Positions 1 to 13,984 of a stretch of 13,984 nucleotides of DNA are shown one piece after another. The notes beneath the pieces are model-generated. The model was not told the origin of the DNA and ran no database searches. It saw only the letters and a program-made list of their open reading frames with translations. The DNA is from Gemmatimonadota bacterium. GTDB lineage: Bacteria > Gemmatimonadota > Gemmatimonadetes > Palauibacterales > KS3-K002. Where the stretch lies: contig JBDHJS010000068.1 in the NCBI GenBank assembly GCA_039586795.1, forward strand, positions 1 through 13,984, read 5' to 3'. Position numbers and translations under genes: made by a program. Numbering within the stretch: the first letter of the stretch is position 1; the number at the start of each line of letters is the position of its first letter.

Positions 1-30
1 ACGCTCGATCCGATAATCGCTCTTTGCCAT
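1..30 (-). CDS. 5' end (partial) of probable class II fumarate hydratase / aspartate ammonia-lyase
   Basis: Minus-strand ATG at 30, preceded by GGAG, reads MAKSDYRIER off the window edge. This resembles the 'YRIExDsmG' N-terminus of FumC/AspA. Only 10 codons are visible. Confidence 0.55.
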   Translation of the reverse strand, partial: MAKSDYRIER

Positions 31-2075: not shown

Positions 2076-2145
2076 CCTCTCCACGTGGCTCCAGTCTAGG
2101 GCTTGGACAACGTTGCTCGTCCGGTTGTTGGCCGGTGGCCGAGCG

Positions 2146-2622
2146 CTAGGCAGAGTCCGCTCGAAGATCTTCCATCTGGGCTCGATGGTAATGATAGTCG
2201 GCCATCAGATCGTCCACGGTACTCCTCACCGTCAGCGTCTCGCCGTCGTGCCGGACCCCGAAGTCGTGGTCCCAGGTGTCAGGATCAAGTTCTCGAAGGA
2301 AGGCGGTCAACTCCGCTGTCGATGCGGCCAGGCTCTCCAGCAGCGCGGATCGATCCGTATCCGCGTACTCCCGAACGAGCTCAGCGTTCACGTTTGAGTA
2401 GTCAGGACCGGGATCCACATCGTAAAACGGCAGCTCGCCGCGCATGATCTGTCTGGCGCCCCTCACAATGTACCGGTTCCACCCGATCAGGTGAGCCACG
2501 ATATCCCGCGCCGTCCATCTATTCATCTCTCTGAGAAACAGAACTTCGTCGAGCGAAGCAACGGAACCCGCGAACGCTGCGACGCACGACTCGAGCTGGT
2601 CCAACTGTTCCTTTAGGGTCAT
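2146..2622 (-). CDS. DinB/YfiT-like (ClbS/DfsB-like) four-helix-bundle protein
   Basis: WTARDIVAHLIGWN motif and a C-terminal DYHYH His cluster, typical of the DinB superfamily; AGAGG SD. Confidence 0.8.
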   Translation of the reverse strand: MTLKEQLDQLESCVAAFAGSVASLDEVLFLREMNRWTARDIVAHLIGWNRYIVRGARQIMRGELPFYDVDPGPDYSNVNAELVREYADTDRSALLESLAASTAELTAFLRELDPDTWDHDFGVRHDGETLTVRSTVDDLMADYHYHRAQMEDLRADSA

Positions 2623-2669
2623 GGTTGGGCCTCTATCTTGGAACGCTTGCCGGCGGAGTCAGTCAGCGT

Positions 2670-2733
2670 GTCCAACGACCGTATTGCAGAAGAACCCACC
2701 CGACTGCGGAGCGCGCTGCAAACGCTTTTAGGC
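2670..2733 (-). repeat. Degenerate short attC site
   Basis: Minus: GCCTAA(-)AAGCGTTTGCAGCGCGC...CTGCAATACGGTC-GTTGGAC. R'' has lost the C of AAC; the R''/L'' end matches the 115-bp family; R' GTTGGAC fits GTTRRRY. Confidence 0.65.
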
Positions 2734-2757
2734 TGCGCCATCTCAAAAGCACAGCAA

Positions 2758-2865
2758 CTACTTCTTCTTCTCTGAATAGACAGACACAAACCACAGCGCG
2801 CCAATCCCCAAAAAGAAAACTCCCAAACCCCCAAGGAAATGGCCGAGTGCTACTAAGTTCTCCAT
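2758..2865 (-). CDS. Small single-pass membrane protein (35 aa), not in the ORF track
   Basis: GGAGG-atgat-ATG, then MENLVALGHFLGGLGVFFLGIGALWFVSVYSEKKK-TAG: a hydrophobic Gly-rich helix with a basic tail, ending 24 nt before an attC R''. Confidence 0.7.
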   Translation of the reverse strand: MENLVALGHFLGGLGVFFLGIGALWFVSVYSEKKK

Positions 2866-2928
2866 ATCATCCTCCGCTCTGCGCGGGCGCGCCCGCAATG
2901 TAGGGTCCTTCCTCGAAGCGCTTCCTAT

Positions 2929-4230
2929 CTACCGAAACAGCGACGTCACAATCTCCCGGGCGTAAGCATGCACCCACAGTGTGCTCTGGTACGCGGAGGA
3001 GAACCAGACTACGACGGTATCCGTCTCAGGCGAGACGCACAGCGCCTGACCCGATCGCCCGGACTTGTAGAGATCGCCGTCCGGAAAGACGGCGTCCCAC
3101 TGATACGAGGCCCCCATCCCGATGTTGCCGAAATCGCGAATCATACGATCGCCCATGTTGTTTCCGGCGAAGATCGCCGGGTCTGAGGCGTCATAGACCT
3201 TGGATAGGTAGCCCTCCGACACCACACGCTCATCCCCAACCACGTCCCAACTCGGCGTGAAGAGCATGCCATAGCGCGCGAAGTCGCGCAGGCGGGACGC
3301 GAAGATTCCGAAGGCCGAGGGCTCCCCGCTAGGGGAAAGCCCAAGCAAACCATCGCCCTCCATTCCGGCCCTGCTCCAGACCCGTTCGGTGAGCGCGTCG
3401 TGGAACGCCATTCCTGTGAGTCGCTCCACCAAGAGTACGAGCGCGTACGTGTTGAGCGACGAGTACTCGAACAGAAAGCCCGGCTCACGGAGTGTTCCGG
3501 CCGCCGTCATGCTGGCCAGGAAGGAAGGGTCCGCGCCCTCGGCCCCGGCGAACGTGGCATAGAAGAGCGTGGTCGGGTGTCCGGGCGTTCCCAGGCTGGC
3601 CTCACGGATGTCTAGACCCGACCGCTGGTGGAGAACATCGGCCACGGGGATCTCGGCCCAAGCTGTGAAGTCCAACTCCGGCAGGTAGCGTGCGATCGGG
3701 GCCTCTAGGTCCAAGAGGCCCTCCTCTTCCAGTTGGTGGACCAAGAGGCCCGGGATGGTCTTCGTAGCGGAAGCCCACACGTGCGTATCCCAGGGGCGGA
3801 TCCCGACGTATTCCTCGTAGACCAGCTTGCCCTGGTGGACGACGGCAATGGCGCGCATGCGGGATCGCGGATCGTCCATCATCTCGCGAAGTGTCATCGT
3901 CCCCAAGTCGGTCGTCGCGGTGACGTCTTGGATCTCGGGCATCGGCGCACTCTCGAGCGGGACCGCTGGTCCTGCGCGGCTGACCAGAGCGGTCGGGAGC
4001 ACCTCGCCAATGTGCACGACCGCATTGGCCCCCACGTCCCCGGCTTCCGTCAGAGACCCACCGTCATACGCCCTGCGGTAGCGGAGGCTCTCCTCGGCGG
4101 AGTATCCGTCCCGCCACGTCCAAACCGGAATGAGCCCAGCCGGTATGGTGTAAGCGTCCTGCGCAGACGCGGACGCCGTCGCCGACAGAGCGACCAGAAA
4201 GGCAACGAGTCCTGCCCTTGCCGTCTTCAT
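2929..4230 (-). CDS. Secreted serine hydrolase, beta-lactamase/NylB-like family
   Basis: Signal peptide MKTARAGLVAFLVALSATASASA; SxxK (ASATK), F-x-YSS and KSG motifs. GGAG SD supports the start at 4230 rather than 4299. Confidence 0.85.
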   Translation of the reverse strand: MKTARAGLVAFLVALSATASASAQDAYTIPAGLIPVWTWRDGYSAEESLRYRRAYDGGSLTEAGDVGANAVVHIGEVLPTALVSRAGPAVPLESAPMPEIQDVTATTDLGTMTLREMMDDPRSRMRAIAVVHQGKLVYEEYVGIRPWDTHVWASATKTIPGLLVHQLEEEGLLDLEAPIARYLPELDFTAWAEIPVADVLHQRSGLDIREASLGTPGHPTTLFYATFAGAEGADPSFLASMTAAGTLREPGFLFEYSSLNTYALVLLVERLTGMAFHDALTERVWSRAGMEGDGLLGLSPSGEPSAFGIFASRLRDFARYGMLFTPSWDVVGDERVVSEGYLSKVYDASDPAIFAGNNMGDRMIRDFGNIGMGASYQWDAVFPDGDLYKSGRSGQALCVSPETDTVVVWFSSAYQSTLWVHAYAREIVTSLFR

Positions 4231-4324
4231 GCGCTGGCTCCGTTTCGGTGTACTTCGACTTGTCAGGTAGTGCGGGCCACAGGAACGAAGGAGGAGCACA
4301 GCGTCCTGAACCTGGTCCCCGGAT

Positions 4325-4386
4325 TCCTAACGTTTCTTTGTTTCAGCGGCGCCGTGACGAAGTCGTGGCGTCGCGAGAACGTCTAT
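4325..4386 (-). repeat. Truncated attC (L'/R' half of the 115-bp family)
   Basis: tcctaacgtttctttgtttcagcggcgccgtgacgaagtcgtggcgtcgcgagaacgtctat matches the first ~62 nt of the intact copies, then stops abruptly inside the 3' end of the DUF885 ORF. Confidence 0.85.
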
Positions 4387-6127
4387 CCCCGCCCCCGCCT
4401 CCCACCAGAATCGGATCCTTCCGGCCGGACATTTCCCAGCGCACAAGCGTGTGCGGAATGACGCCGGCGTCAAAGTAGTCGTCGAAGAAGCTTCCGACGG
4501 TGAACGCGTCCCCACGCTCTAGGGCTACCTCGGAGACCAGTTCCTCGAGCTGGATCTTCCCGGTCACGTAGCTCGTGCCGTAGCCCGGCTGACGGAGGTA
4601 GAGTTGCTGCTCGCCCCGGACCAAGTCGGCGTCCGGGAGCCAACCCCGGGGCGTCCATCGCCCCGCGTACTCTACCGCCTCTTCCATCGTGAACTCGTTG
4701 CCCAGGAGGTAGAGGCCGGCGAGCGCCCGTGCAGCCCGCTGCGCGAGCATGATCCAGACGAGTTCGCGCGAGCGGGGAAAGTCGTCGTAGAGCCCGGCGT
4801 GCATGAACATCTCCTCCACACCCGTCGCGAGGCCTTCCGAACGGTCGTCGTAAATGTTGTAGAGGGGCGGGGCGCTCCGGATCGGACTCGGGTGCGGCCT
4901 CTCCTTGATGCGGGCGAGCTCGATCCAGTGGTGCTTGTGTGTCAACAGCACCATGGGGTCCCGGTAGTTCACTTCCTGGAAGAAGTTCCGGAGTTCGTCC
5001 GGGCCCGCGGGGGTGAAGGTCCCCATCTGCGCGCGGAGCGCGGGGTCCATCCACTCCTCTATCGTGTGGATTTCCTCTTCATCCAGGAACTCCATATACC
5101 GGGTGACCGCGGCGTTCAGACGTCGGTCGTACTCTTGGGCGTCGTCGATGCGCTCGAGCTCGGGGAGGTCGCGGTTCCGATTCTCCTCCAGCCGAAGCGA
5201 TGAATGCGCCCGCGCGAGCTCCCGACGCATGAGCGTGAGCTGTTCCTCCCAGGAGAACGGGACGAGGTGGACGTTCTGCATGTACCAGGTGTAGTTGTCC
5301 TTCCCCACACCCGAGGCTCCGGTCTTCGAGGGGGCTTCTTCCTCGAGCCACCCGATGAAGGCTTCCGTAGCCTCACGTGCGGTGACGATCGCCGCATCGA
5401 GTTCGGCGCTCGTTCCTCCGACCCGCTCCCCCAGGCTCTCGAGGTCCGCTACCTGCCCGCGGAATGAGCGGGGGCTCGCCAGCCAGAGATCGCGTGCATT
5501 CCCTGTGAGGTTGACCCGGGCTTGCTCCAGGATCTGCGAGGTGGCCCCGATGCGCTCCGCGAGCTCCTCGGCATCTTCTGCGGACAGCGGATAGTCGTAG
5601 AGCCAGAGGTCGATCCACCCGTGGATCGCCGGGCCCTCATGGGCGGGCACATCGCTCTGCGCGGGGTAGATGGTGATGTAGAAGGCGGGGTCTCGCTCCC
5701 AGGGCCGACGCACACGGTGGTCGAATTCGAGGCCGTTCATCTCCGCCCGCACAAGGTGCCAGTCGATTTGTTGGGCGACGGGCCAGCCCTCGACGTCGAA
5801 GCCGTCGAGCCGGTCCTGCCACTCCGCGAGAGCCGTGCGCTGCGCGGCCATCGCACTCGCGGAGTAGTCGGGCACGCCATCCACGAACTCGGGCATTTCG
5901 AAGGCGCGCCACTCGTCGAACAGGGCGAGGAGATCATCGTAGGTGCCGCCGGTGGATGCCTCCTCGCGGGCGGGCGCGCAGGAAATCGAGGCCGCGATGA
6001 TCCCAGTCAACGCTAGGGTCACGAGAGTCCTAGATCTCGCCGCCGGGTGGACCGGGGTGAGTTGGGTGCGGCGCGGGATGCGGGAGTCAAGCATCGATCG
6101 CTCCTCGGCACGATGTCTCGTAGTCAT
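4343..6127 (-). CDS. DUF885-family (metallopeptidase-like) exported protein / lipoprotein
   Basis: 594 aa; GGAGGAG SD; hydrophobic segment ending ...AASISC; EGLATGVEE and QPGYGTSYVTGKIQL segments resemble the DUF885 'EGWA..E' and 'PGQA.sY..G' motifs. Confidence 0.75.
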   Translation of the reverse strand: MTTRHRAEERSMLDSRIPRRTQLTPVHPAARSRTLVTLALTGIIAASISCAPAREEASTGGTYDDLLALFDEWRAFEMPEFVDGVPDYSASAMAAQRTALAEWQDRLDGFDVEGWPVAQQIDWHLVRAEMNGLEFDHRVRRPWERDPAFYITIYPAQSDVPAHEGPAIHGWIDLWLYDYPLSAEDAEELAERIGATSQILEQARVNLTGNARDLWLASPRSFRGQVADLESLGERVGGTSAELDAAIVTAREATEAFIGWLEEEAPSKTGASGVGKDNYTWYMQNVHLVPFSWEEQLTLMRRELARAHSSLRLEENRNRDLPELERIDDAQEYDRRLNAAVTRYMEFLDEEEIHTIEEWMDPALRAQMGTFTPAGPDELRNFFQEVNYRDPMVLLTHKHHWIELARIKERPHPSPIRSAPPLYNIYDDRSEGLATGVEEMFMHAGLYDDFPRSRELVWIMLAQRAARALAGLYLLGNEFTMEEAVEYAGRWTPRGWLPDADLVRGEQQLYLRQPGYGTSYVTGKIQLEELVSEVALERGDAFTVGSFFDDYFDAGVIPHTLVRWEMSGRKDPILVGGGGGDRRSRDATTSSRRR

Positions 6128-6178
6128 TTCTCCTCCAGCGGCTGGGGCATTCGTTCTGCCCTTCCACTTTGTCAGTAT

Positions 6179-6293
6179 CAGAAACGGTTCTTCGTTTCAG
6201 CGGCGCCGTGACCACCCAATGGCGTCGCAGGAGCATCTATACAGAAGAGTCTACTCCAATGCATAGCGCGCCCGCTGCAAACGCTTGTTAGGC
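6179..6293 (-). repeat. attC site, 115-bp family (non-consensus R' GTTTCTG)
   Basis: Full-length match to the other copies; R'' GCCTAAC at 6287-6293; R' keeps GTT but not RRRY. Confidence 0.9.
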
Positions 6294-6321
6294 GGAAGCG
6301 ACCTCTGCAGCCGCACCAAGC

Positions 6322-6750
6322 CTATGGAATAGAGTCGGCTAGTTCGACCCGCCAAAGACGCAGTATGTTCACGCCTGGCGTGGCCTCTTCATCGGTCGGC
6401 CATTCAGGACGAATACCATCCATGGGCCGCAGAACCCACATCAGTGTCTTGCCGTCACTCGATTCCTCGCACCGCACGAGCGTTTTCCATGGCGCCATCG
6501 TCGTGTCTTCGAACTGAAGGTCAAACCAGATAGGGTCTCTTGAGAGATCGACCGTATGGCTGAACGGCATCGCTTCGACTTGATCTCTTATGTAGCCCCT
6601 GCCTCCCTCTCGAATCACCAGGCGGCTCGGAGCAGTGGTCGACCTTAGGTCCCAAACACCCGCCAAGCTGAAACCTTCCGGACATAGCGATTGGGGCCCC
6701 GTACTAGCGACTGCTGCGTCTAGAAGTGCGAATAGAAACATCCAGGTCAA
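6322..6750 (-). CDS. Hypothetical exported protein (cassette gene)
   Basis: GGAGG SD before TTG at 6750; hydrophobic N-terminus; fills the space between two attC sites. Confidence 0.7.
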   Translation of the reverse strand: MTWMFLFALLDAAVASTGPQSLCPEGFSLAGVWDLRSTTAPSRLVIREGGRGYIRDQVEAMPFSHTVDLSRDPIWFDLQFEDTTMAPWKTLVRCEESSDGKTLMWVLRPMDGIRPEWPTDEEATPGVNILRLWRVELADSIP

Positions 6751-6780
6751 CTGCGGCCTCCAGAGTATGCAGAAGCTGCG

Positions 6781-6835
6781 GCCTAACGGTTCTGCGGATA
6801 AGCTGCGAACGCAAACTCACCAGCTGCAGAACCGT
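6781..6835 (-). repeat. Partial attC, second family (R'/L' half only)
   Basis: gcctaacggttctgcggataagctgcgaacg...caccagct resembles 7657-7701; no intact R'' (gttRRRY on +) before the upstream gene's stop at 6906. Confidence 0.7.
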
Positions 6836-6905
6836 AGAGAATTCAACGCAACTGTTGATAACGTCTCATGAATACGCTTTCTTCACCGCTAGCCGCCAGG
6901 CCCAC

Positions 6906-7625
6906 TCAGTAGATGCCGGGAACAAGCCGAAAGTGAACACGCCGCGCATACTCGCGGTAGCCTGGTAGCTCTTCCTGAAGCGTCTGGTCTTCAAGTGCGG
7001 TCCTAATTACCAGGATGACAATTGCTACGACTGCCGGGATGAGTGTCCACAATGATCCCAGAGCGAGTGCAATGCCAGGCAGAGGCAGTAGGTGGCCGGC
7101 ATAACCCGGATGCCGTATGATGCGATAGGGGCCAGTATCACAGACAACATGGCCTCGGTCCCTTTGAATGCGGACTACGCTGGCAAAGTAGGGGTTCTCC
7201 ACCAATGCCATTGTAGCAAACGCGTATCCAAAGGTGACCAAGATCAGGCCGAGAATGTTGAGCCACGTTGGGAACACTGGCGACCAACTGTGACGGTGAT
7301 CCAACCCTGCGACGATGAAGAGCGGCAGAGATATGCTCACCGCCGTAAGTGGCGCAAGGACCCTGTCCCATGGCTTTGCGGCGTGCAGCTTCTCAAGACT
7401 CTGTCGTTCGGCGAGCAATCCCGGATGTCGCCGGTCCGCCCAAAGGCGCCCGCCTATGCCGGTTACAAGAAACACAAGAGTATAGGCCCACGCCTGCCAC
7501 CATCGGAGATCCGACGCTGGAACCCAAAGAGCCAGTAGCAAGATGACAAATACGATAAGAGAACGAGTCAGAAGAACCAGCATCGACGTTCGAGCCGGCT
7601 CTTGGTCATGACGTGTCGGTTTCAT
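6906..7625 (-). CDS. Isoprenylcysteine carboxyl methyltransferase (ICMT/PEMT) family membrane protein
   Basis: Multiple TM helices; ENPYFASVVRIQ..H.V..TGPY.IIRHPGY and RT.LED..L.EEL.GY..Y motifs; GGAGG SD. Confidence 0.88.
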   Translation of the reverse strand: MKPTRHDQEPARTSMLVLLTRSLIVFVILLLALWVPASDLRWWQAWAYTLVFLVTGIGGRLWADRRHPGLLAERQSLEKLHAAKPWDRVLAPLTAVSISLPLFIVAGLDHRHSWSPVFPTWLNILGLILVTFGYAFATMALVENPYFASVVRIQRDRGHVVCDTGPYRIIRHPGYAGHLLPLPGIALALGSLWTLIPAVVAIVILVIRTALEDQTLQEELPGYREYARRVHFRLVPGIY

Positions 7626-7656
7626 GCAATGCCTCCGATCACGATGACCGTGCGCT

Positions 7657-7789
7657 GCCTAACGACTCTGCACATAAGTTGCGAACGATAGTTCACCAGC
7701 TCCACGGAATAACTTGGTGTCATTGATTTCACCATGCGCACAAAACGATTGGTCCCCCAGCGTTCGCCAACTTCATTTGCATGTTAGGC
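7657..7789 (-). repeat. attC site, second family (133 bp)
   Basis: gcctaac (7657-7663) ... gttaggc (7783-7789); inner arms aagttgcgaacg / cgttcgccaactt pair with one extra base. Confidence 0.88.
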
Positions 7790-7828
7790 AGCCACCGGCG
7801 TTCATGTGCCGCCCTGCTCATCTCAACT

Positions 7829-8866
7829 CTACGCAACTCGGCGATAAGTGTCGGTCACAAGCACGACCTTCCCAGTGTGCCCCCCTCGTTCGAGTCGCTC
7901 ATGCGCTCCGGACGCATCGGCCAGCGGGAACCGTTCGGAAACAATCGGTCGGATCAAGCCCGAAGCAGCCAGGTCGATCAGTCCAGAGAGCGTCGAACGG
8001 TACCAACCCGGATTCGCCAACGCGTGAGTGCCGACGTCCGGAGTCACCGGTACCGAACGTCCACCTGGAAGGCGGCGCAACAAGGAGGCCATCAAGAGAC
8101 TGGTGAGGCCGATACTCAGGCCCTTGTCTCTCGTCGCGGCAGAGCCGAGCCAAACCAGCCTCCCGCCGTGTCGGAGCGTGCGGTAAGAGCGCATCAGCTG
8201 TCTCGCGCCCCCGACCGTGTCGACCACGGCATCGACCCCGTCGCCGGTCAGTTCAGCGATTCGCTCCACGAAGTCTTCGGATCGATATTCGATCGGCTCC
8301 GCGCCAAGTCGGGATACGACGGGCAGATTGTGCTGAGATGCCGTCCCGTACATCTCGAGCTCGGCGACTCGACCGAGTTCCAAAACCGCCGAACCAACTC
8401 CGCCAGCCGCCCCATGCACGAGGAGCTTTTCTCCTGGCTGCACACGTCCGTACTCATGTAGATGGAGATGCGCAGTCAGGTAGTTCGCCACGAGGCAGAC
8501 CGCTACGGCTGCATCCAGGTCTTCGGGCACTGGTACGAGTTCGCCTGCCGGTAGGCAGATAGACTCCGTATAGCCGCCGCCAACACCCAGGGCCCAGGTG
8601 GCCGCAGCGACTTTCTGACCGACCGCTAGTCTCGAGACATCCGGCCCGAGCTTGTCGACCCTGCCCACCACGTCTTCACCGAGCGCGAAAGGCAGCGGAG
8701 GGCAACCAGGCAGTCGACGCCAACGCCTGTAGATGAGATCGAACCCAGAGACGCCGGCGGCCTCGACCACCACCCGGGCCTCACCGCCTGCGGGCTCAGG
8801 GGGCTCTTCGGTGCTCGGTAAGAGAACCTCGGGTCCACCGTGTCTCGATACGACGATGCGTATCAT
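7829..8866 (-). CDS. Medium-chain dehydrogenase/reductase, NADPH:quinone oxidoreductase-like
   Basis: GGPEVL, GED.VG.V, HGAAGGVG nucleotide-binding motif, C-terminal GKVVL; GAGGAG SD. Confidence 0.88.
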   Translation of the reverse strand: MIRIVVSRHGGPEVLLPSTEEPPEPAGGEARVVVEAAGVSGFDLIYRRWRRLPGCPPLPFALGEDVVGRVDKLGPDVSRLAVGQKVAAATWALGVGGGYTESICLPAGELVPVPEDLDAAVAVCLVANYLTAHLHLHEYGRVQPGEKLLVHGAAGGVGSAVLELGRVAELEMYGTASQHNLPVVSRLGAEPIEYRSEDFVERIAELTGDGVDAVVDTVGGARQLMRSYRTLRHGGRLVWLGSAATRDKGLSIGLTSLLMASLLRRLPGGRSVPVTPDVGTHALANPGWYRSTLSGLIDLAASGLIRPIVSERFPLADASGAHERLERGGHTGKVVLVTDTYRRVA

Positions 8867-8884
8867 CGCTCAAGGTACTCCTCT

Positions 8885-8904
8885 GCTGCAAACGTTTGTT
8901 AGGC
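8885..8904 (-). repeat. Truncated attC (R''/L'' only)
   Basis: gctgcaaacgtttgttaggc is 19/20 identical to the right end of the 115-bp family. The rest is missing, and the next gene's SD follows directly. Confidence 0.85.
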
Positions 8905-9135
8905 CGCCCCTTCTTTCGACTTTTGCGGCTTCCAGTGCAGCGCAAGGCGTCGACCACTCGCGGCGCAATCTCTAAGGTAAAGGTTTATCAATGTCTGGTA
9001 CGGGATTCCGGTCTCCGCGGCCAGGTCCTTGAAATAGGCAATTGTCGACTCATCGAGGCGAATCGTCACCGGCTTCTTAAGCCGCTTGGCGTATGGATTC
9101 CTTCGGGCCTTCGAAAAATCGTACTGCTTCCTCAT
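8899..9135 (-). CDS. brnA: BrnA-family antitoxin
   Basis: MRKQYDFSKARRNPY...KKPVTIRLD...YFK..A...GIPYQTLINLYL; ATGA overlap with the toxin stop; its own TAA lies in the attC R''. Confidence 0.9.
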   Translation of the reverse strand: MRKQYDFSKARRNPYAKRLKKPVTIRLDESTIAYFKDLAAETGIPYQTLINLYLRDCAASGRRLALHWKPQKSKEGAA

Positions 9136-9428
9136 GGCTTCCACCTCTTTTCGTACTCCGCGCGCTCAGGGCGGGTCGCCTTCCGAGCGGAAATGATTTT
9201 GATGATATCACCGGCTTCCCGATAACAGTGACAGACCACAAGAGTCCGCAGACTGGCACTCAGACCGAGCAAGACAAACCTATCTTCATCTTCGGAATGA
9301 TCGGGATCATCAATCAGCAGGGCCCGCTCATCAGAAAACACGGTGAGGGCTTCCTCGAAGCTGACGCCGTGCTTGCGCTGGTTGGCGGTGTTCTTTCGCG
9401 GATCCCAGTCAAAACGAAGTTCGGCCAT
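9132..9428 (-). CDS. brnT: BrnT-family ribonuclease toxin
   Basis: FDWDPRKN..N.RKHGVSFEEA..VF.D...DHS..EDR...LG...IISARKAT..E...Y. Confidence 0.92.
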   Translation of the reverse strand: MAELRFDWDPRKNTANQRKHGVSFEEALTVFSDERALLIDDPDHSEDEDRFVLLGLSASLRTLVVCHCYREAGDIIKIISARKATRPERAEYEKRWKP

Positions 9429-9433
9429 AGCTT

Positions 9434-9463
9434 AATGTACATACGATGTATGTATACTGTCAA
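9434..9463 (-). promoter_or_regulatory. Cassette-internal promoter of the TA operon with operator palindrome
   Basis: Minus strand TTGACA (9463-9458), 18 nt, TACATT (9439-9434), then 5 nt to the ATG with no SD. Palindrome TACATAC-N3-GTATGTA at 9438-9454. Confidence 0.75.
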
Positions 9464-9486
9464 TCAGCGTGTGGGGAGGATGGACG

Positions 9487-9601
9487 GCCTAACGGTTCTT
9501 CGTTTCAGCGGCGCCGTGACGTTGTCGCGGCGTCGCAGGAACACCCATACAGAATAGCCTACCCCGATGCATAGCGCGCCCGCTGCAAACGCTTGTTAGG
9601 C
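9487..9601 (-). repeat. attC site, 115-bp family
   Basis: gcctaac...gttaggc ends; arms cgtttcagcggcgc / gcgcccgctgcaaacg pair with two extra bases. Confidence 0.95.
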
Positions 9602-9621
9602 GACGTGTTCACACAGCGCAG

Positions 9622-10086
9622 CTAGGAATCGTTCGAGATCAGGGCAGCGAATCGCCACTGGCCGTCGGCACCGCGGCGCAGCACATGGACGTACTTGCGG
9701 GAACTACTGAATCCGGGCATGGTTGGCTCGATGGATAGATTCTGCGTGCCCACTTCGTATGCCAAATCGCCAACACCGTATAAGTCGACGGGCAACAACT
9801 CAAGGCTTGTGACCGTTACGGCCTCGAACATGGCTGCGTTATGTGCCTCTAGCTCCGCCCTGCCAGTGATCAACGGTGCCCCTGGATGCAAGAGCTGCAC
9901 CTCCTCGGTGCATAGTTTTGCATAGGCAGCTGCGTCGCCGGCTTTTATGGCGTCTATTACCGCGCCTCGCAGGCTGTCGATGGCGGCGATATCATCAGGC
10001 GATAGTGTCGGAGGTTCTTCCGAGCTAGTGTTGCATCCCACTGCCAAGACGCTCGCTAGGATGGACATAGCCACGATTGTTTTCAA
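9622..10086 (-). CDS. SnoaL/DUF4440 (NTF2-like) lipoprotein
   Basis: TTG start at 10086 after GGAAGG (the longer ORF-track start lies inside the attC); lipobox LAVGC; GD..A.A.L.TE..., GR, KY..VLRR..DG.WR motifs. Confidence 0.82.
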   Translation of the reverse strand: MKTIVAMSILASVLAVGCNTSSEEPPTLSPDDIAAIDSLRGAVIDAIKAGDAAAYAKLCTEEVQLLHPGAPLITGRAELEAHNAAMFEAVTVTSLELLPVDLYGVGDLAYEVGTQNLSIEPTMPGFSSSRKYVHVLRRGADGQWRFAALISNDS

Positions 10087-10124
10087 GTGACCTTCCCATT
10101 TGGGGTTTGACTCCAACGAGTGTC

Positions 10125-10239
10125 GCCTAACGGTTCTTCGTTTCAGCGGCGCCGTGATGAACTGGCGGCGTCGCAGGAACATCTATACAGAAGCGCCCAC
10201 TCCAATGCGCAGCGCGCCCGCTGCAAACGCTTGTTAGGG
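10125..10239 (-). repeat. attC site, 115-bp family
   Basis: gcctaac...gttaggg; full-length match to the other copies. Confidence 0.95.
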
Positions 10240-11070
10240 CGACCGCTCGCTGGCGGAGAGAAGATCCAAATAGGCCCGGGCAAAGCGACGGCCTAGCTCG
10301 AGTTGTCCGTCTGTATTGTAGTGCACCTCATCCCCGTGCTTCGGCAAGTCATCAGTGAGCACCAGACGTGTACTGGAGATCTGACCTTCTGCCTCACGCT
10401 GCGCTTCCCGAACAAGGTCCGCCGCGGCCCAGCGGTCCGGTGGTGGGTTCACCTGCCCAAGCACGAATGGCGTGTTCGGTTTGCCAAGATCTTCACGCAG
10501 GCACTGGACCAACTTCTCCAAGTTCCTCAGGTATTCAGCGCCCGCCGCTGGGAAGTAAGCATCCCTCTCCCCTTGCATCCATAGGAAGCCGGCGAACTCC
10601 GCATCCGCCCGCAGCGGGACCAAAGCTACGATGTCTAGAAGATTCTCATAGAGAGGCCCGTCCAGAACGTTCTCTGTAATGGCAGCACCCACAGAATCCC
10701 AAACCGGCGCCCAAGCCAGCAGCGAGGTCGCATCCACTGCGTACTTGAGGAGCACGATTTGGCGTTCCGGCCAAGCGCTAGCCAGCTCGTGTGCGAACCC
10801 CACTTCCGGTCCGAACCGTTCTTGCTCCGCAAAACGGGTTAGCTCACCCTCGAGGAAATACTGGACATTCGCCGGGGTCCGGGCCATTTCCGGTGGGAGC
10901 TCCGCAGATACGCCACGGCCCACCATGTTCGACTGCCCAGCGAGGAGAAACACGACTTGGCTAGACTCTTGTGCGAACGTGCCACTCGCGAAGGCGCAGA
11001 TGGACAACCACGCCGGCATCAAGGCGTGTCGTAAGCGAGCCGGGCTATTCCAATGCGAGGGGCGCATCAT
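10234..11070 (-). CDS. Sialate O-acetylesterase / CE6-like SGNH esterase, exported
   Basis: LLAGQSNM, FGPE, WMQGE and DEVHY catalytic motifs; signal-like N-terminus; stop codon inside R''. Confidence 0.88.
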   Translation of the reverse strand: MMRPSHWNSPARLRHALMPAWLSICAFASGTFAQESSQVVFLLAGQSNMVGRGVSAELPPEMARTPANVQYFLEGELTRFAEQERFGPEVGFAHELASAWPERQIVLLKYAVDATSLLAWAPVWDSVGAAITENVLDGPLYENLLDIVALVPLRADAEFAGFLWMQGERDAYFPAAGAEYLRNLEKLVQCLREDLGKPNTPFVLGQVNPPPDRWAAADLVREAQREAEGQISSTRLVLTDDLPKHGDEVHYNTDGQLELGRRFARAYLDLLSASERSP

Positions 11071-11132
11071 GGCTCAAGTCACCTCTTACGTCTCGTGTAG
11101 TCTAGCCGCCGACCCGATCCCGCGCCTGGGCG

Positions 11133-11247
11133 CCCTAACGGTTCATCGTTTCAGCGGCGCCGTGACGTTGTCGCGGCGTCGCAGGAACAGCCATACAGAA
11201 GAGCCTACACCAATGCATAGCGCGCCCGCTGCAAACGCTTGTTAGGC
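11133..11247 (-). repeat. attC site, 115-bp family
   Basis: ccctaac...gttaggc; full-length match. Confidence 0.95.
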
Positions 11248-11263
11248 GGATTGGCTTGCGGAT

Positions 11264-11980
11264 TCATCGCTGGAGGTACGCCAGTAGGATCCCCAGCAAT
11301 TCGACCGCCTCGGTTCGCGTGACCTCCAGACGATTGTAGGCGAAAGCCGCATAGTTTCGCTCAGCGGCCAACTGGCGCTGCAAATCTGAACTTCGCAGCC
11401 TGTCGACAATGCCGGTAACATCGATCTCCAGCGCTGCCGGAGCCTGGCCACTGGACTGTCCGGTCTGAGGTAGGATGCCCGGTGGAACAAGACTATAGAC
11501 CATAGGAGCGTAAGCAGTGCCGCGCCGCTCGACCCTGTTCGCACGGTGTAGCGCATTCTGATAGTACTCGATTACAGCAGCGCGCACGGTAGCCTCTTGA
11601 ATCAGACCCAGGTTGCCTGTACTGGTGAGATCCTCAAACGTAACCGTACGCAAGGGCGGGATAATCCACCCGTAGTCCGTCCCTGTAGCAAGAGCGTTGA
11701 TAAGATCAGCTGTATCCGCTACAGAACGCGGATCCCCATCCGTGAGTTCAGCTAGCGACTCCAGGCTCTCCTGCTTCTCCACAAGACCCGCGAGGATGGA
11801 CGAGAGCGTCGCTGTATCCGCCTGGACATCTTCGTAGAGTCGCTCCAGATACTCTCTCTCCTGCGCTCGCTCATCACGTGACTGGTTCCATCTGTCAACG
11901 GCCAGGGCAACCAGTACACCAATCACGATAATCAGGAATTCCGCGATACCGCGACGCCAGCTAGACAACGGTGATTTCAT
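11264..11980 (-). CDS. Hypothetical N-terminally membrane-anchored helical protein (DUF6090-like)
   Basis: EFLIIVIGVLVALAVDRWN TM motif, a coiled-coil-like stretch and TF..L.STG.L.LI. The start is uncertain (11980 ATG versus 12025 TTG). Confidence 0.72.
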   Translation of the reverse strand: MKSPLSSWRRGIAEFLIIVIGVLVALAVDRWNQSRDERAQEREYLERLYEDVQADTATLSSILAGLVEKQESLESLAELTDGDPRSVADTADLINALATGTDYGWIIPPLRTVTFEDLTSTGNLGLIQEATVRAAVIEYYQNALHRANRVERRGTAYAPMVYSLVPPGILPQTGQSSGQAPAALEIDVTGIVDRLRSSDLQRQLAAERNYAAFAYNRLEVTRTEAVELLGILLAYLQR

Positions 11981-12028
11981 AGGCCCTAGAACAATTTCGA
12001 CGGCACCATGTAGAGACTCGGACAATCC

Positions 12029-12143
12029 GCCTAACGGTTCATCGTTTCAGCGGCGCCGTGAAGAGCCTGCGGCACCGCAGGAACATCTACATAGAAGAGT
12101 CTGCCCCGATGCATAGCGCGCCCGCTGCAAACGCTTGTTAGGC
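12029..12143 (-). repeat. attC site, 115-bp family
   Basis: gcctaac...gttaggc; full-length match. Confidence 0.95.
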
Positions 12144-12152
12144 GCCGTGCTG

Positions 12153-12641
12153 CTAAGAATCGGGGCCCGGTGGCGGCGCATCTGAATTCCAGATGTCCGT
12201 GCTTATCCGCCAGATCCCATCGGGCCCTTTTCGCACAATCCAGAGATACTTGCCGATCTCCGATACCGGATCGGCGGAGCCCGGCGGAACAAATGTCATG
12301 CTGAATGTCCCACGATTGTAGGCCAGGTTGTTGACACCGTCGATCGAGGCGGAGGCTGTCGTGAAGACCTTTATCTCAAGTCCTGACTTGCTGAACCAAT
12401 CCACAATTACCCCGCGGCCGATCACTTCAGCCAAGTTAGGTGGCATCAGAACCGCGTCTTCAGTGTAGAGAGAGGCAAGCGCCGTCCAGTCCTTTTCCAG
12501 AATACTCTGCCGAAACCGCTCATCAAGCTCGGCGATCGCAGCAGCGTCTTCCTCGCTAAGGGCATCAGGTGAAGGCGGCCCACAGCCGACGATGACCAGC
12601 AACAGTCCCATGCACGCAAGTGAGAAGCTTTGGATTATCAT
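12153..12641 (-). CDS. SnoaL/DUF4440 (NTF2-like) lipoprotein, first cassette
   Basis: GGAG SD; lipobox IVGC; LYTEDAVLMPPN...GR...GKYL.I.RK.PDG.W.I..DIWNSD. Confidence 0.88.
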   Translation of the reverse strand: MIIQSFSLACMGLLLVIVGCGPPSPDALSEEDAAAIAELDERFRQSILEKDWTALASLYTEDAVLMPPNLAEVIGRGVIVDWFSKSGLEIKVFTTASASIDGVNNLAYNRGTFSMTFVPPGSADPVSEIGKYLWIVRKGPDGIWRISTDIWNSDAPPPGPDS

Positions 12642-12674
12642 GATCCAGCTCCGTGTCAGAGGCTAGGACAAGGC

Positions 12675-12870
12675 GCCTAACAGGTCTTGTGCCGCCACAG
12701 CCAAGGGCGGCTGCGTCGGCCATGAAGCTGCCTAATCTGTCTTTGTAGAGGCTGCGCACGAGGAGTATGTTATTCAACATACAGCACTTACGGCCGATCG
12801 ACCAGTTTAGGCTGCGCGTGTAACACTGCTAAAGCGGCAGCCTAATCCGAAAGCAGCCTAATCCAGCCAG
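12675..12870 (-). other. Putative attI-like / array leader region with core site GTTAGGC
   Basis: Core site at 12675-12681 whose downstream bases complement the first cassette's R'' flank (12/13), but with no 115-bp attC body. Direct repeats gcagcctaatcc at 12837-12848 and 12853-12864; variants at 12727-12737 and, inverted, at 12807-12815. Confidence 0.5.
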
Positions 12871-12947
12871 GCTGTCGATGCCTGGTCACAGCAGGTGGTA
12901 GCGGTACAGTCGGATTGCGCTAGATAGTGCGGTTCCAAACTGTTGAA

Positions 12948-12990
12948 CACGTCAATGTCAACGCCCCGTCGTCGCGGGCGCTGACGCTAC
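12948..12990. repeat. Composite intergenic repeat element, copy 3
   Basis: cacgtcaatgtcaacgccccgtcgtcgc versus 1106-1133 cacgtagacgtcgacgccccgtcgtcgc (24/28, last 15 nt identical), same orientation. Confidence 0.6.
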
Positions 12991-13011
12991 GTCGACGAAG
13001 ACGAGCTTACC

Positions 13012-13983
13012 CTAGTCCTCCAATGTTGATACGTCGCCTTCGGGTAGGCCCTGTGCTCGGGCTTTCAATAGGCGACGCATGATCTTCCCGGAACGCGTCT
13101 TCGGCAGGCTATCCACGAACTCCACCTTCTCCGGTTTCGCGATCGGTCCCACTTCCTTGCCGACGTGCTGGATCAGCTCATCGGCTAGTTCGGGGCTATC
13201 AGGATAGCCGGCGCGGAGAATGACGTAGCTGTAGATCACATTTCCCTTCACATCGTGCGGGATCCCAATGCTCGCCGCCTCCGAGACCGCGTCATGGCTG
13301 ACCAGCGCCGACTCGATCTCCGCCGTGCCCAGACGGTAGCCCGATACTTTGATCACATCATCCATGCGGCCGATGATCCAGAAATAGCCGTCCTCATCGA
13401 CCTTTGCCGAATCGCCGGTCAGATACTTGCCATCGTACGTCGACCAGTACTGTTCGATGTAGCGGTCGGGGTCCTTGTAAATCCCACGCAGCATCGAGGG
13501 CCACGGCGTCGTGATCACCAGCTTGCCTTCCTCGCCCGGCGGTACCTGTTTCCCTTCCTCGTCCAGGATCTCTGCCGTGATGCCGGGGAACGGTCGGGTG
13601 CCCGAGCCCGGCTTGAGGGGGAACGACGGGACCGGAGTGATCATGAAGGCGCCGGTCTCCGTCTGCCACCAGGTATCGATCACCGGGCAGCGGCTCTTGC
13701 CCACCACCTCGAAGTACCAGCGCCAGGCCTCCGGGTTGATCGGTTCGCCGACGCTGCCCAGCAGCCGCAGCGTCGATGTGTTCCGCTTGTTCACCCACGA
13801 CTCGCCGAACCGCATCAACCCGCGGATCGCCGTCGGCGCGGTGTAAAGGATGGTGACGCCGTACTTCTCGACGATCTGCCACCAGCGGTCGGGGTAGGGG
13901 TAGGTCGGCGCGCCCTCGTACATGATCGATGTGGCGCCGAGGATCAGCGGGCCGTAAACGATGTAGCTGTGGCCGGTGATCCA
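13012..13983 (-). CDS. acs: Acetyl-CoA synthetase (acetate--CoA ligase), 3' part; continues beyond the window
   Basis: [35 protein letters not shown], GRx[15 protein letters not shown]. Confidence 0.95.
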
Positions 13984-13984
13984 G

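Follow-up and report, generated by a model that had tools for sequence, protein, structure and literature searches.

attC-site clusters without integron-integrases (CALINs) are defined by their attC sites only, and secondary-site insertion, loss of the integrase gene (intI) and rearrangement have been put forward as their origins; most of them carry no intI pseudogene, and their origin is open (PMC4889954). In integrons, the integrase IntI inserts circular gene cassettes by recombining the folded bottom strand of attC with attI (PMC2727003, PMC8352920). In the Treponema-type, 'inverted integrase' integrons, intI is transcribed towards attI (PMC3607928, PMC4889954), and T. phagedenis keeps its array after the loss of intI (PMC3607928); in archaeal integrons, attI lies downstream of intI (10.1101/2022.02.06.479319). 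The extra CALINs of Xanthomonas are described as mobilisable in trans (10.1101/2025.06.18.660453), and integrons in Gemmatimonadota have already been published (PMC8618304). CALINs, co-directional intI genes and intI decay are all, in this sense, published phenomena. Here, we analyse a cassette array of a Gemmatimonadota bacterium (GCA_039586795.1). The window, 13,984 nucleotides, is the entire contig JBDHJS010000068.1 (C28) of a 4.68-Mb, 107-contig assembly, the completeness of which is rated 97.8%. The array, which lies between acs and fumC, is a CALIN of a variant form with a likely orphan attI dock, and falls outside the definitions of both a complete integron and a locus-fixed sedentary integron. 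On balance, we favour a history in which this orphan-platform array was probably loaded in trans by the IntI of the lineage until the integrase gene suffered an internal deletion, and in which the arrays of this genome are now probably frozen.

A likely attI platform without integrase at the head of the array

The array holds 11-12 cassette genes of unrelated families, all on the minus strand. Between the first cassette and acs, on the same strand, lies a stretch of ~190 bp (12675..12862) that is absent from the earlier note on this DNA and is homologous to the DNA found 3' of intI. It consists of tandem TTAGGC-type direct repeats at its 5' edge, a -10-like box at 12776-12781, a third repeat at about 12727-12736 and an attI core, the R box of which (GTTRRRY; 12675..12681, minus strand) aligns with the R box of intI-linked platforms and is the predicted point of cassette insertion. 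The stretch is 65% identical (131 of 201 columns) to the DNA 3' of an intI remnant on contig C22 of the same genome, a similarity that none of 500 shuffles equalled (0/500) and that BLASTN detects at E 3e-7 to 4e-7; when BLAST was run across 31 genomes of the family, C22 was the sole convincing match. It is also matched at full length (E 1.2e-10) by model R1, a sequence-only model of 17 platforms from which that of the window was excluded and in which those of C22 and C59 from the same genome were included. Thus, 12675-12862 is likely an attI platform of the kind lying 3' of a co-directional intI and, judging from homology and position, an attI would head the array as in a complete integron.

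The platform has counterparts in metagenomes, which we queried with a left-edge motif derived from the window and C22. The motif lies within 80 bp of the IntI C-terminus at 45 of the 52 loci recovered; six loci (three distinct ones) have no IntI in at least 1.3 kb, and one is too short. A GTT core, for which three patterns were allowed, follows the motif after 179-185 nt at all 52 loci, compared with 180 nt in the window. Eight of the 29 distinct pre-crossover sequences precede more than one different sequence, and such variability after shared pre-crossover DNA suggests attI-like behaviour. In a large metagenome integron group (L199-L250), the left-edge repeat and the 180-nt spacing are common, whereas the rest of the platform differs. 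Two matches to the platform pattern were obtained in viral contigs, neither of which is a platform, and model R1 under stricter filters yielded one weak match among 150 other genomes of the phylum. A TATCTT-like box is conserved in platforms, and three relatives have a similar box ahead of fumC; a platform promoter may lie near 12776-12781.

The acs-fumC gap measures 12,982 bp here, compared with 207 bp in a relative of the same genus and 176, 1772, 1841, 1877 and 4073 bp in five others, the comparison comprising the six relatives with both genes on one fetched stretch. No attC motif and no array was found in any of the six gaps, and in a seventh relative, of the same genus, in which another gene precedes fumC, there is no array within 1.5 kb upstream of fumC. 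A 9-nt motif match in the gap of G022 falls in coding sequence and was discarded. Since the gap of the relatives is without the array, the latter is, judged by this comparison, an insert specific to the lineage, which bears out the earlier note in its description of an integrase-less, lineage-specific array between these genes and in the comparison of relatives that it proposed. Whereas a sedentary integron occupies one fixed locus across related species, this array is absent from the acs-fumC gap of the relatives.

The only IntI-like sequence of the assembly is internally deleted

As the earlier note had stated, the window encodes no tyrosine recombinase: none was found among 16 scanned proteins, neither PF00589 nor TIGR02249 has a match on the contig, and tblastn with six intact IntIs gave no match on C28, C102 or C25. 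No intact intI thus stands beside the array, as it would in a complete integron. The search for IntI elsewhere, also proposed in the note, uncovered an internally deleted remnant on C22 alone. In the whole assembly, tblastn with six intact IntIs of the family returned above noise only this remnant, XerC and XerD. Likewise, PF00589 has three matches genome-wide, one of which is the remnant; the other two we take, by length and sequence, to be XerD and XerC.

In the remnant (G000:C22:6830-7171, locus L001), about residue 22 is joined in frame to about residue 229-233, the first ~22 and last ~85 residues being retained; 113 codons are free of stops and frameshifts. The C-terminal part is 75-80% identical to the IntI of most relatives and, given the open frame and this high identity, the loss looks recent. 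A short direct repeat is found at both breakpoints in an intact relative, making a microhomology deletion likely. One contig from an independent run, which may be the source sample, crosses the deletion junction without difference. A similar fusion, of about residue 42 to 226, is found in the intI of G030, so that internal deletions keeping both ends recur. IntI scores above the family cut-off in 7 of 40 relatives and in 3 of 5 further relatives. Just upstream of intI in four genomes (L010, L008, L012 and L105) there is a gene or remnant ending in LAE(L/M)FAP-like codons, which presumably resembles a PemK/MazF toxin. An apparent alignment of an intI tail between acs and the platform was lost to shuffles (for seven intI tails, 85-639 of 1000 scored as high), and a TTGAC in the same gap is part of a host repeat and not of intI.

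These results bear on whether the array might still be active, through an intact IntI that was missed by the assembly or that visits on a mobile element, which we consider improbable. The assembly is incomplete, an IntI of the same genus is open over model positions 1-234 to the contig end, with a short gap, and the four attC sites nearest acs have computed fold probabilities of 0.03-0.5 (see below). Furthermore, a run contig with four differences in 829 nt to the dehydrogenase cassette departs at 8889, in a half attC, into other DNA. However, this divergence could also stem from a deletion within the attC of the window itself, the tblastn search brought up only the remnant and the two Xer proteins, and among the joints listed for four runs none combines an attC crossover with 31 or more letters to either side. 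None of the assembled contigs of the four runs spans the array; the listed joints have short sides, and there is no evidence of excision. The recent activity that the earlier note read from the intact right end of the array has indirect support only. Both histories offered there, service in trans by a distant IntI and orphaning after the loss of intI, fit the evidence, but a distant IntI is unlikely to serve the array at present, since the one IntI-like sequence of the assembly is internally deleted.

attC sites of two types

Five copies of exactly 115 nt (6179-6293, 9487-9601, 10125-10239, 11133-11247 and 12029-12143), together with half copies, separate unrelated co-oriented genes, as the earlier note had reported. 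The copies are related rather than near-identical, with 96-109 of 115 positions (83-95%) shared between pairs. Nor do they form a homogeneous family of the array's own. The array mixes two attC types, the second of which the note had overlooked, and the genome-wide search for the 115-nt repeat proposed in it placed copies in arrays on other contigs: the family heads arrays on C22, C59, C102 and C15 and matches 20 of 30 genomes of the family, many of these matches being short arms. The array thus contains clustered attC sites (five of 115 nt, one of 133 nt and halves; at least two define a CALIN) with no integrase gene nearby.

All complete sites are read on the minus strand, so the plus strand corresponds to the attC bottom strand. 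The four sites nearest acs (12029..12143, 11133..11247, 10125..10239 and 9487..9601) are intact by profile and folding, with computed probabilities of the recombinogenic fold of 0.28, 0.03, 0.5 and 0.07, whereas the fifth (6179..6293) has a degenerate R' and is predicted to be a poor substrate (3e-4). The site of the second type (7657..7789, 133 nt) is intact, its minimum-energy structure being a full attC hairpin. Half sites mark the cassette borders wherever a complete attC is missing: L' and R' of the second type at 6781..about 6835, R'' and L'' only at 8885..8904, and L' and R' at 4325..4386 (all minus strand). They are followed by a decayed attC at 2640..2733 (minus strand), a half or decayed site at about 2883-2905 and an R''-like heptamer after the last cassette (2127-2133). 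At the six complete sites, open reading frames (ORFs) stop 0-40 bp from R'', as is characteristic of gene cassettes.

On the folded bottom strand, R' pairs with R'' in the 115-nt copies and L' with L'' in a stem with one extrahelical C; AAC/GTT is conserved and the terminal part is long. Across 17 copies, taken from this genome and its relatives, 92% of the R-box positions and 99.5% of those in the L stem pair, compared with 31-51% for slid partners; covariation of the stem is weak because most stem pairs never vary. The sites resemble canonical attC in their R and L boxes, the AAC/GTT, the G after AAC (PMC5027507, PMC2727003), the single extrahelical base in L'' and the variable terminal structure (PMC5027507, PMC2727003). 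They differ from it in having a C instead of the usual G as the extrahelical base and in a spacer of 9 nt instead of the usual five to six (PMC5027507), the 5-6 nt spacer being a usual and not an absolute feature (PMC5027507). The spacers in the window measure 9 nt between R' and L' and 5 nt in the other arm. Among 60 distinct strict sites in the fetched loci, a census biased towards this geometry in that most loci were fetched with the 115-nt family itself, they are 9/5 in 50, 8/5 in eight, 7/5 in one and 6/5 in one. A full-text literature search, which did not extend to supplements (where attC models may show 9/5), returned no account of the 9/5 geometry. The long spacer may mark a matching IntI specificity. 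Our attC calls come from our own profile and folding rather than from the IntegronFinder model, and an Rfam search gave no match. A generic attC finder produced 38 matches genome-wide, of which ~30 are background, and missed the sites at 6179 and 7657; owing to this background and these misses, it was applied only locally.

Platforms with and without integrase across the family

At the intI loci first examined, the R box lies ~190-240 nt 3' of the intI end in 10 of 11, the other entering an assembly gap. The C22 remnant and the integrons of the family have the inverted layout, with intI co-directional with the cassettes and attI 3' of it, and of this layout the window has the platform only. 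The family thereby shares the arrangement of the Treponema type (intI, ~200 bp, attI and co-oriented cassettes), but Treponema integrons are described at a single syntenic locus, each integron having one attI, whereas here platforms are numerous within a genome and lie at unrelated loci.

Searched with model R1 (E <=0.05), 27 of the 31 genomes gave a total of 88 matches, the highest number, 11, being in a single-contig genome. Our census covers the best 57 of the 87 matches outside the window (E to 1.2e-4), of which 17 are training sequences. IntI sequence lies directly upstream of 16 platforms, nearly full length at nine and partial at seven, down to a 24-aa tail; the partial intI of G015 abuts an N gap and the gene may be intact. 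At 40 platforms there is no IntI in at least 1.1 kb upstream, one of these carrying a non-IntI recombinase fragment, and one platform is at a contig end. An attC or half-site lies within 4.5 kb of 10 of the 40 orphan platforms. The family thus shows all grades from the intact integron, through partial remnants of intI, to the platform alone. The deletion has a direct parallel: at a locus with intI and a whole platform in G023, G005 lacks the gene and one half of the platform.

Two pairs of relatives have orphan platforms at common loci. In G041 and G020, whose common locus is 80% identical from 218 nt upstream, the first cassettes differ, and that of G020 shares 98% identity, over 132 nt, with the cassette that comes first at an intI-linked platform. 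In G015 and G005 (90% over 2.2 kb at the locus), the downstream DNA differs, and the first cassette of G015 is 93% identical over 111 nt to the first one at the intI-linked site of the same genome. These differing first cassettes at syntenic orphan platforms suggest loading in trans. A sub-family of ~10 orphan platforms from two genera, 72-83% alike and located at several unrelated loci, consists of members that are mostly nearer one another than to intI-linked platforms. Some orphan platforms (L086, L087, L190 and L169) adjoin tRNA-like 3' ends, the tRNA being read by eye, one with a recombinase fragment, as if they were carried on, or left by, integrative islands. An intI-upstream motif considered as common to orphan platforms matches only 1 of 42 listed platforms without IntI and found no general support.

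History of the array

Three platforms were found in this genome, in the window and on C22 and C59. The third heads the array on C59, which sits behind what we take to be a purL-like FGAM synthase. Model R1 does not match a platform at the small clusters of C102 and C15 or at that with which C59 begins. The C102 cluster (L004:3900-5400) has the same attC family, lies ~4 kb past fumC and runs in the opposite direction. The C22 array includes an attC with its terminal part deleted and both arms kept (L001:5505-5550) and a third attC type of 75 nt (L001:3821-3895). The platform of the window is nearest to that of C22 (score 171.5, next 109). Pairs of attC sites from the window and C22 are up to 108 of 115 nt alike, and the best pair within the window 109; since the platforms are only 65% identical and the attC sites are this alike between the arrays, their shared loading would postdate the duplication.

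We propose that an integron, or the platform alone, was duplicated into the acs-fumC gap long ago, the platform of the window being an old paralogue of that on C22. IntI would have recombined folded attC bottom strands with the double-stranded attI at 12681, which would place the newest cassettes closest to acs and the oldest ones, whose attC sites have decayed, on the fumC side; the observed decay is polar, with four intact attC beside attI and half sites distal to it. Given the old paralogy of the platforms, the likeness of attC between the arrays and the recent break on C22, the C22 IntI probably loaded the window array from its other locus and then broke by internal deletion. Because intI is transcribed towards attI, with promoter and attI outside the gene, both would survive its deletion. 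The platform promoter would express the first cassettes, and a BrnTA cassette (see below) would stabilise the array.

Alternatively, a full integron at acs-fumC may have loaded all the cassettes and then lost intI cleanly, none being acquired in trans. The comparison of G005 with G023 documents, within the family, that intI was deleted from a fixed locus, loss of intI has been published for Treponema phagedenis (PMC3607928) and Xanthomonas (10.1101/2025.06.18.660453), and an attC family in common could come from an environmental cassette pool, as 20 of 30 genomes match it. Nonetheless, such decay in place appears rather unlikely to us: there is no intI remnant, yet the four proximal attC sites remain intact and reach 94% identity with sites of the C22 array, and the orphan loci of relatives appear to have changed their first cassettes. 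In a third scenario, the array would be a block rearranged from the C22 integron, or a set of off-target (attG) insertions, with the platform-like DNA incidental. Both rearrangement and insertion at secondary sites have been published as ways in which CALINs arise (PMC4889954; 10.1101/2022.09.11.507474), but the platform is of full length and stands exactly at the array head, C22 still has a platform itself, and the two platforms have diverged by 35%, making this origin very improbable.

Several observations weigh against the history that we propose. Profiles built from the platforms of other genomes alone match that of the window weakly (E 0.17 and 0.3), and in the platform tree the three copies of this genome have 75/68 support, with 10 of 15 inner branches unresolved. 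A sigma-70 scan of 12500-13100 found no promoter, and no trace of intI in the stretch from the platform to acs is significant. In the six intervals compared, no relative has an integron or platform at acs-fumC, so that the arrival of a complete integron at this site would be conjecture. At 30 of the 40 orphan platforms, some of them near contig ends or gaps, no attC was detected within 4.5 kb, and the first-cassette matches of the orphan pairs are short, stopping at a contig end or N gap. Finally, an intact intI may be missing because the assembly is in 107 contigs and incomplete.

Cassette genes and flanking regions

Family scans assigned most of the cassette genes, all on the minus strand. 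Starting from acs, these encode a 162-aa DUF4440/SnoaL-like protein (12153..12641), a 238-aa DUF6090 protein (11264..11980), a SASA-family acetylesterase with its stop codon within R'' (10234..11070), a second DUF4440/SnoaL-like protein of 158 aa (9622..10098), a BrnT (9132-9428) and BrnA (8899-9144) type II toxin-antitoxin (8899..9428), a 345-aa member of the zinc-type alcohol dehydrogenase/quinone reductase family (7829..8866), a 239-aa ICMT/PEMT-family methyltransferase (6906..7625), a 142-aa protein of no Pfam family (6322..6750), a DUF885 protein, the frame of which enters a half attC (4343..6127), and a putative PF00144 serine hydrolase (beta-lactamase fold family; 2929..4230). A possible 35-aa hydrophobic ORF (2758..2865), with a strong ribosome-binding site and a length under the usual gene-calling limits, lies between two decayed attC sites, and the last cassette encodes a DinB/MDMPI-family protein (2146..2622). 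Four of the cassette genes are also found in arrays of other genera, at different loci. The methyltransferase has homologues in arrays of G041 and G005, the 142-aa protein a 65% identical homologue adjoining attC matches in G020, the DUF885 protein an 88% identical one behind an attC arm in G017 (L037), and DNA 82% identical to the last cassette lies downstream of a platform in G004. A PADLOC scan of 15 proteins gave no match.

The flanks do reach acs and fumC, as the earlier note had it. On the right, the window ends in the 3' half of acs (acetate-CoA ligase; 323 codons, 13012..13984, minus strand; NCBIfam TIGR02188/NF001208), the rest of which lies on C25, joined by an exact overlap. On the left, no more than the initial 10 codons of fumC fall inside it (1..30, minus strand); the full gene of 463 aa is on C102, which matches the first 60 nt of the window exactly. 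About 2 kb of non-cassette DNA separates fumC from the array. The interval 539-2075 contains an ORF of at most 156 aa without family, the truncated start of a HAD phosphatase (1094-1465, matched weakly in NCBIfam) and, encoded on the plus strand, a membrane protein (1596-2075), and these three genes have no counterpart in the fetched loci of relatives. Two short intergenic repeat families (118-160, 1065-1160 and, in the gap that separates the platform from acs, 12948-12981) lie on either side of the insert and of the ORF at 539-1009, and both have tens of copies across the genome.

Implications

There is nothing unusual in the array as such, in the genes that it carries or in its probable inactivity. 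It has in common with described CALINs (PMC4889954) that no intI is near, that attC sites within it resemble one another and that the genome carries further arrays; a full platform at its head, one of three in the genome, sets it apart. As in Xanthomonas (10.1101/2025.06.18.660453), intI has been lost, by deletion or stops, and extra CALINs lie elsewhere in the genome; the Xanthomonas intI, however, stays at ilvD, whereas here the neighbours of intI-linked platforms differ from genus to genus, and attI platforms are present in the extra arrays. In a full-text search, with most subscription papers outside it, we found no account of multiple orphan attI platforms per genome. Such docks go uncounted because standard tools look for intI and attC. 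The locus points to a concrete route to CALINs, in which an intI that points at attI can be deleted without harm to the dock and another integrase can use it. More tentatively, and in line with the orphan sub-family at several unrelated loci, a ~190-bp promoter-attI module might spread without intI and seed satellite arrays that are loaded in trans by one integrase. We regard this as doubtful but, if true, it would make the integrons of this family a network of one integrase and many docks, and would add a further route by which CALINs arise.

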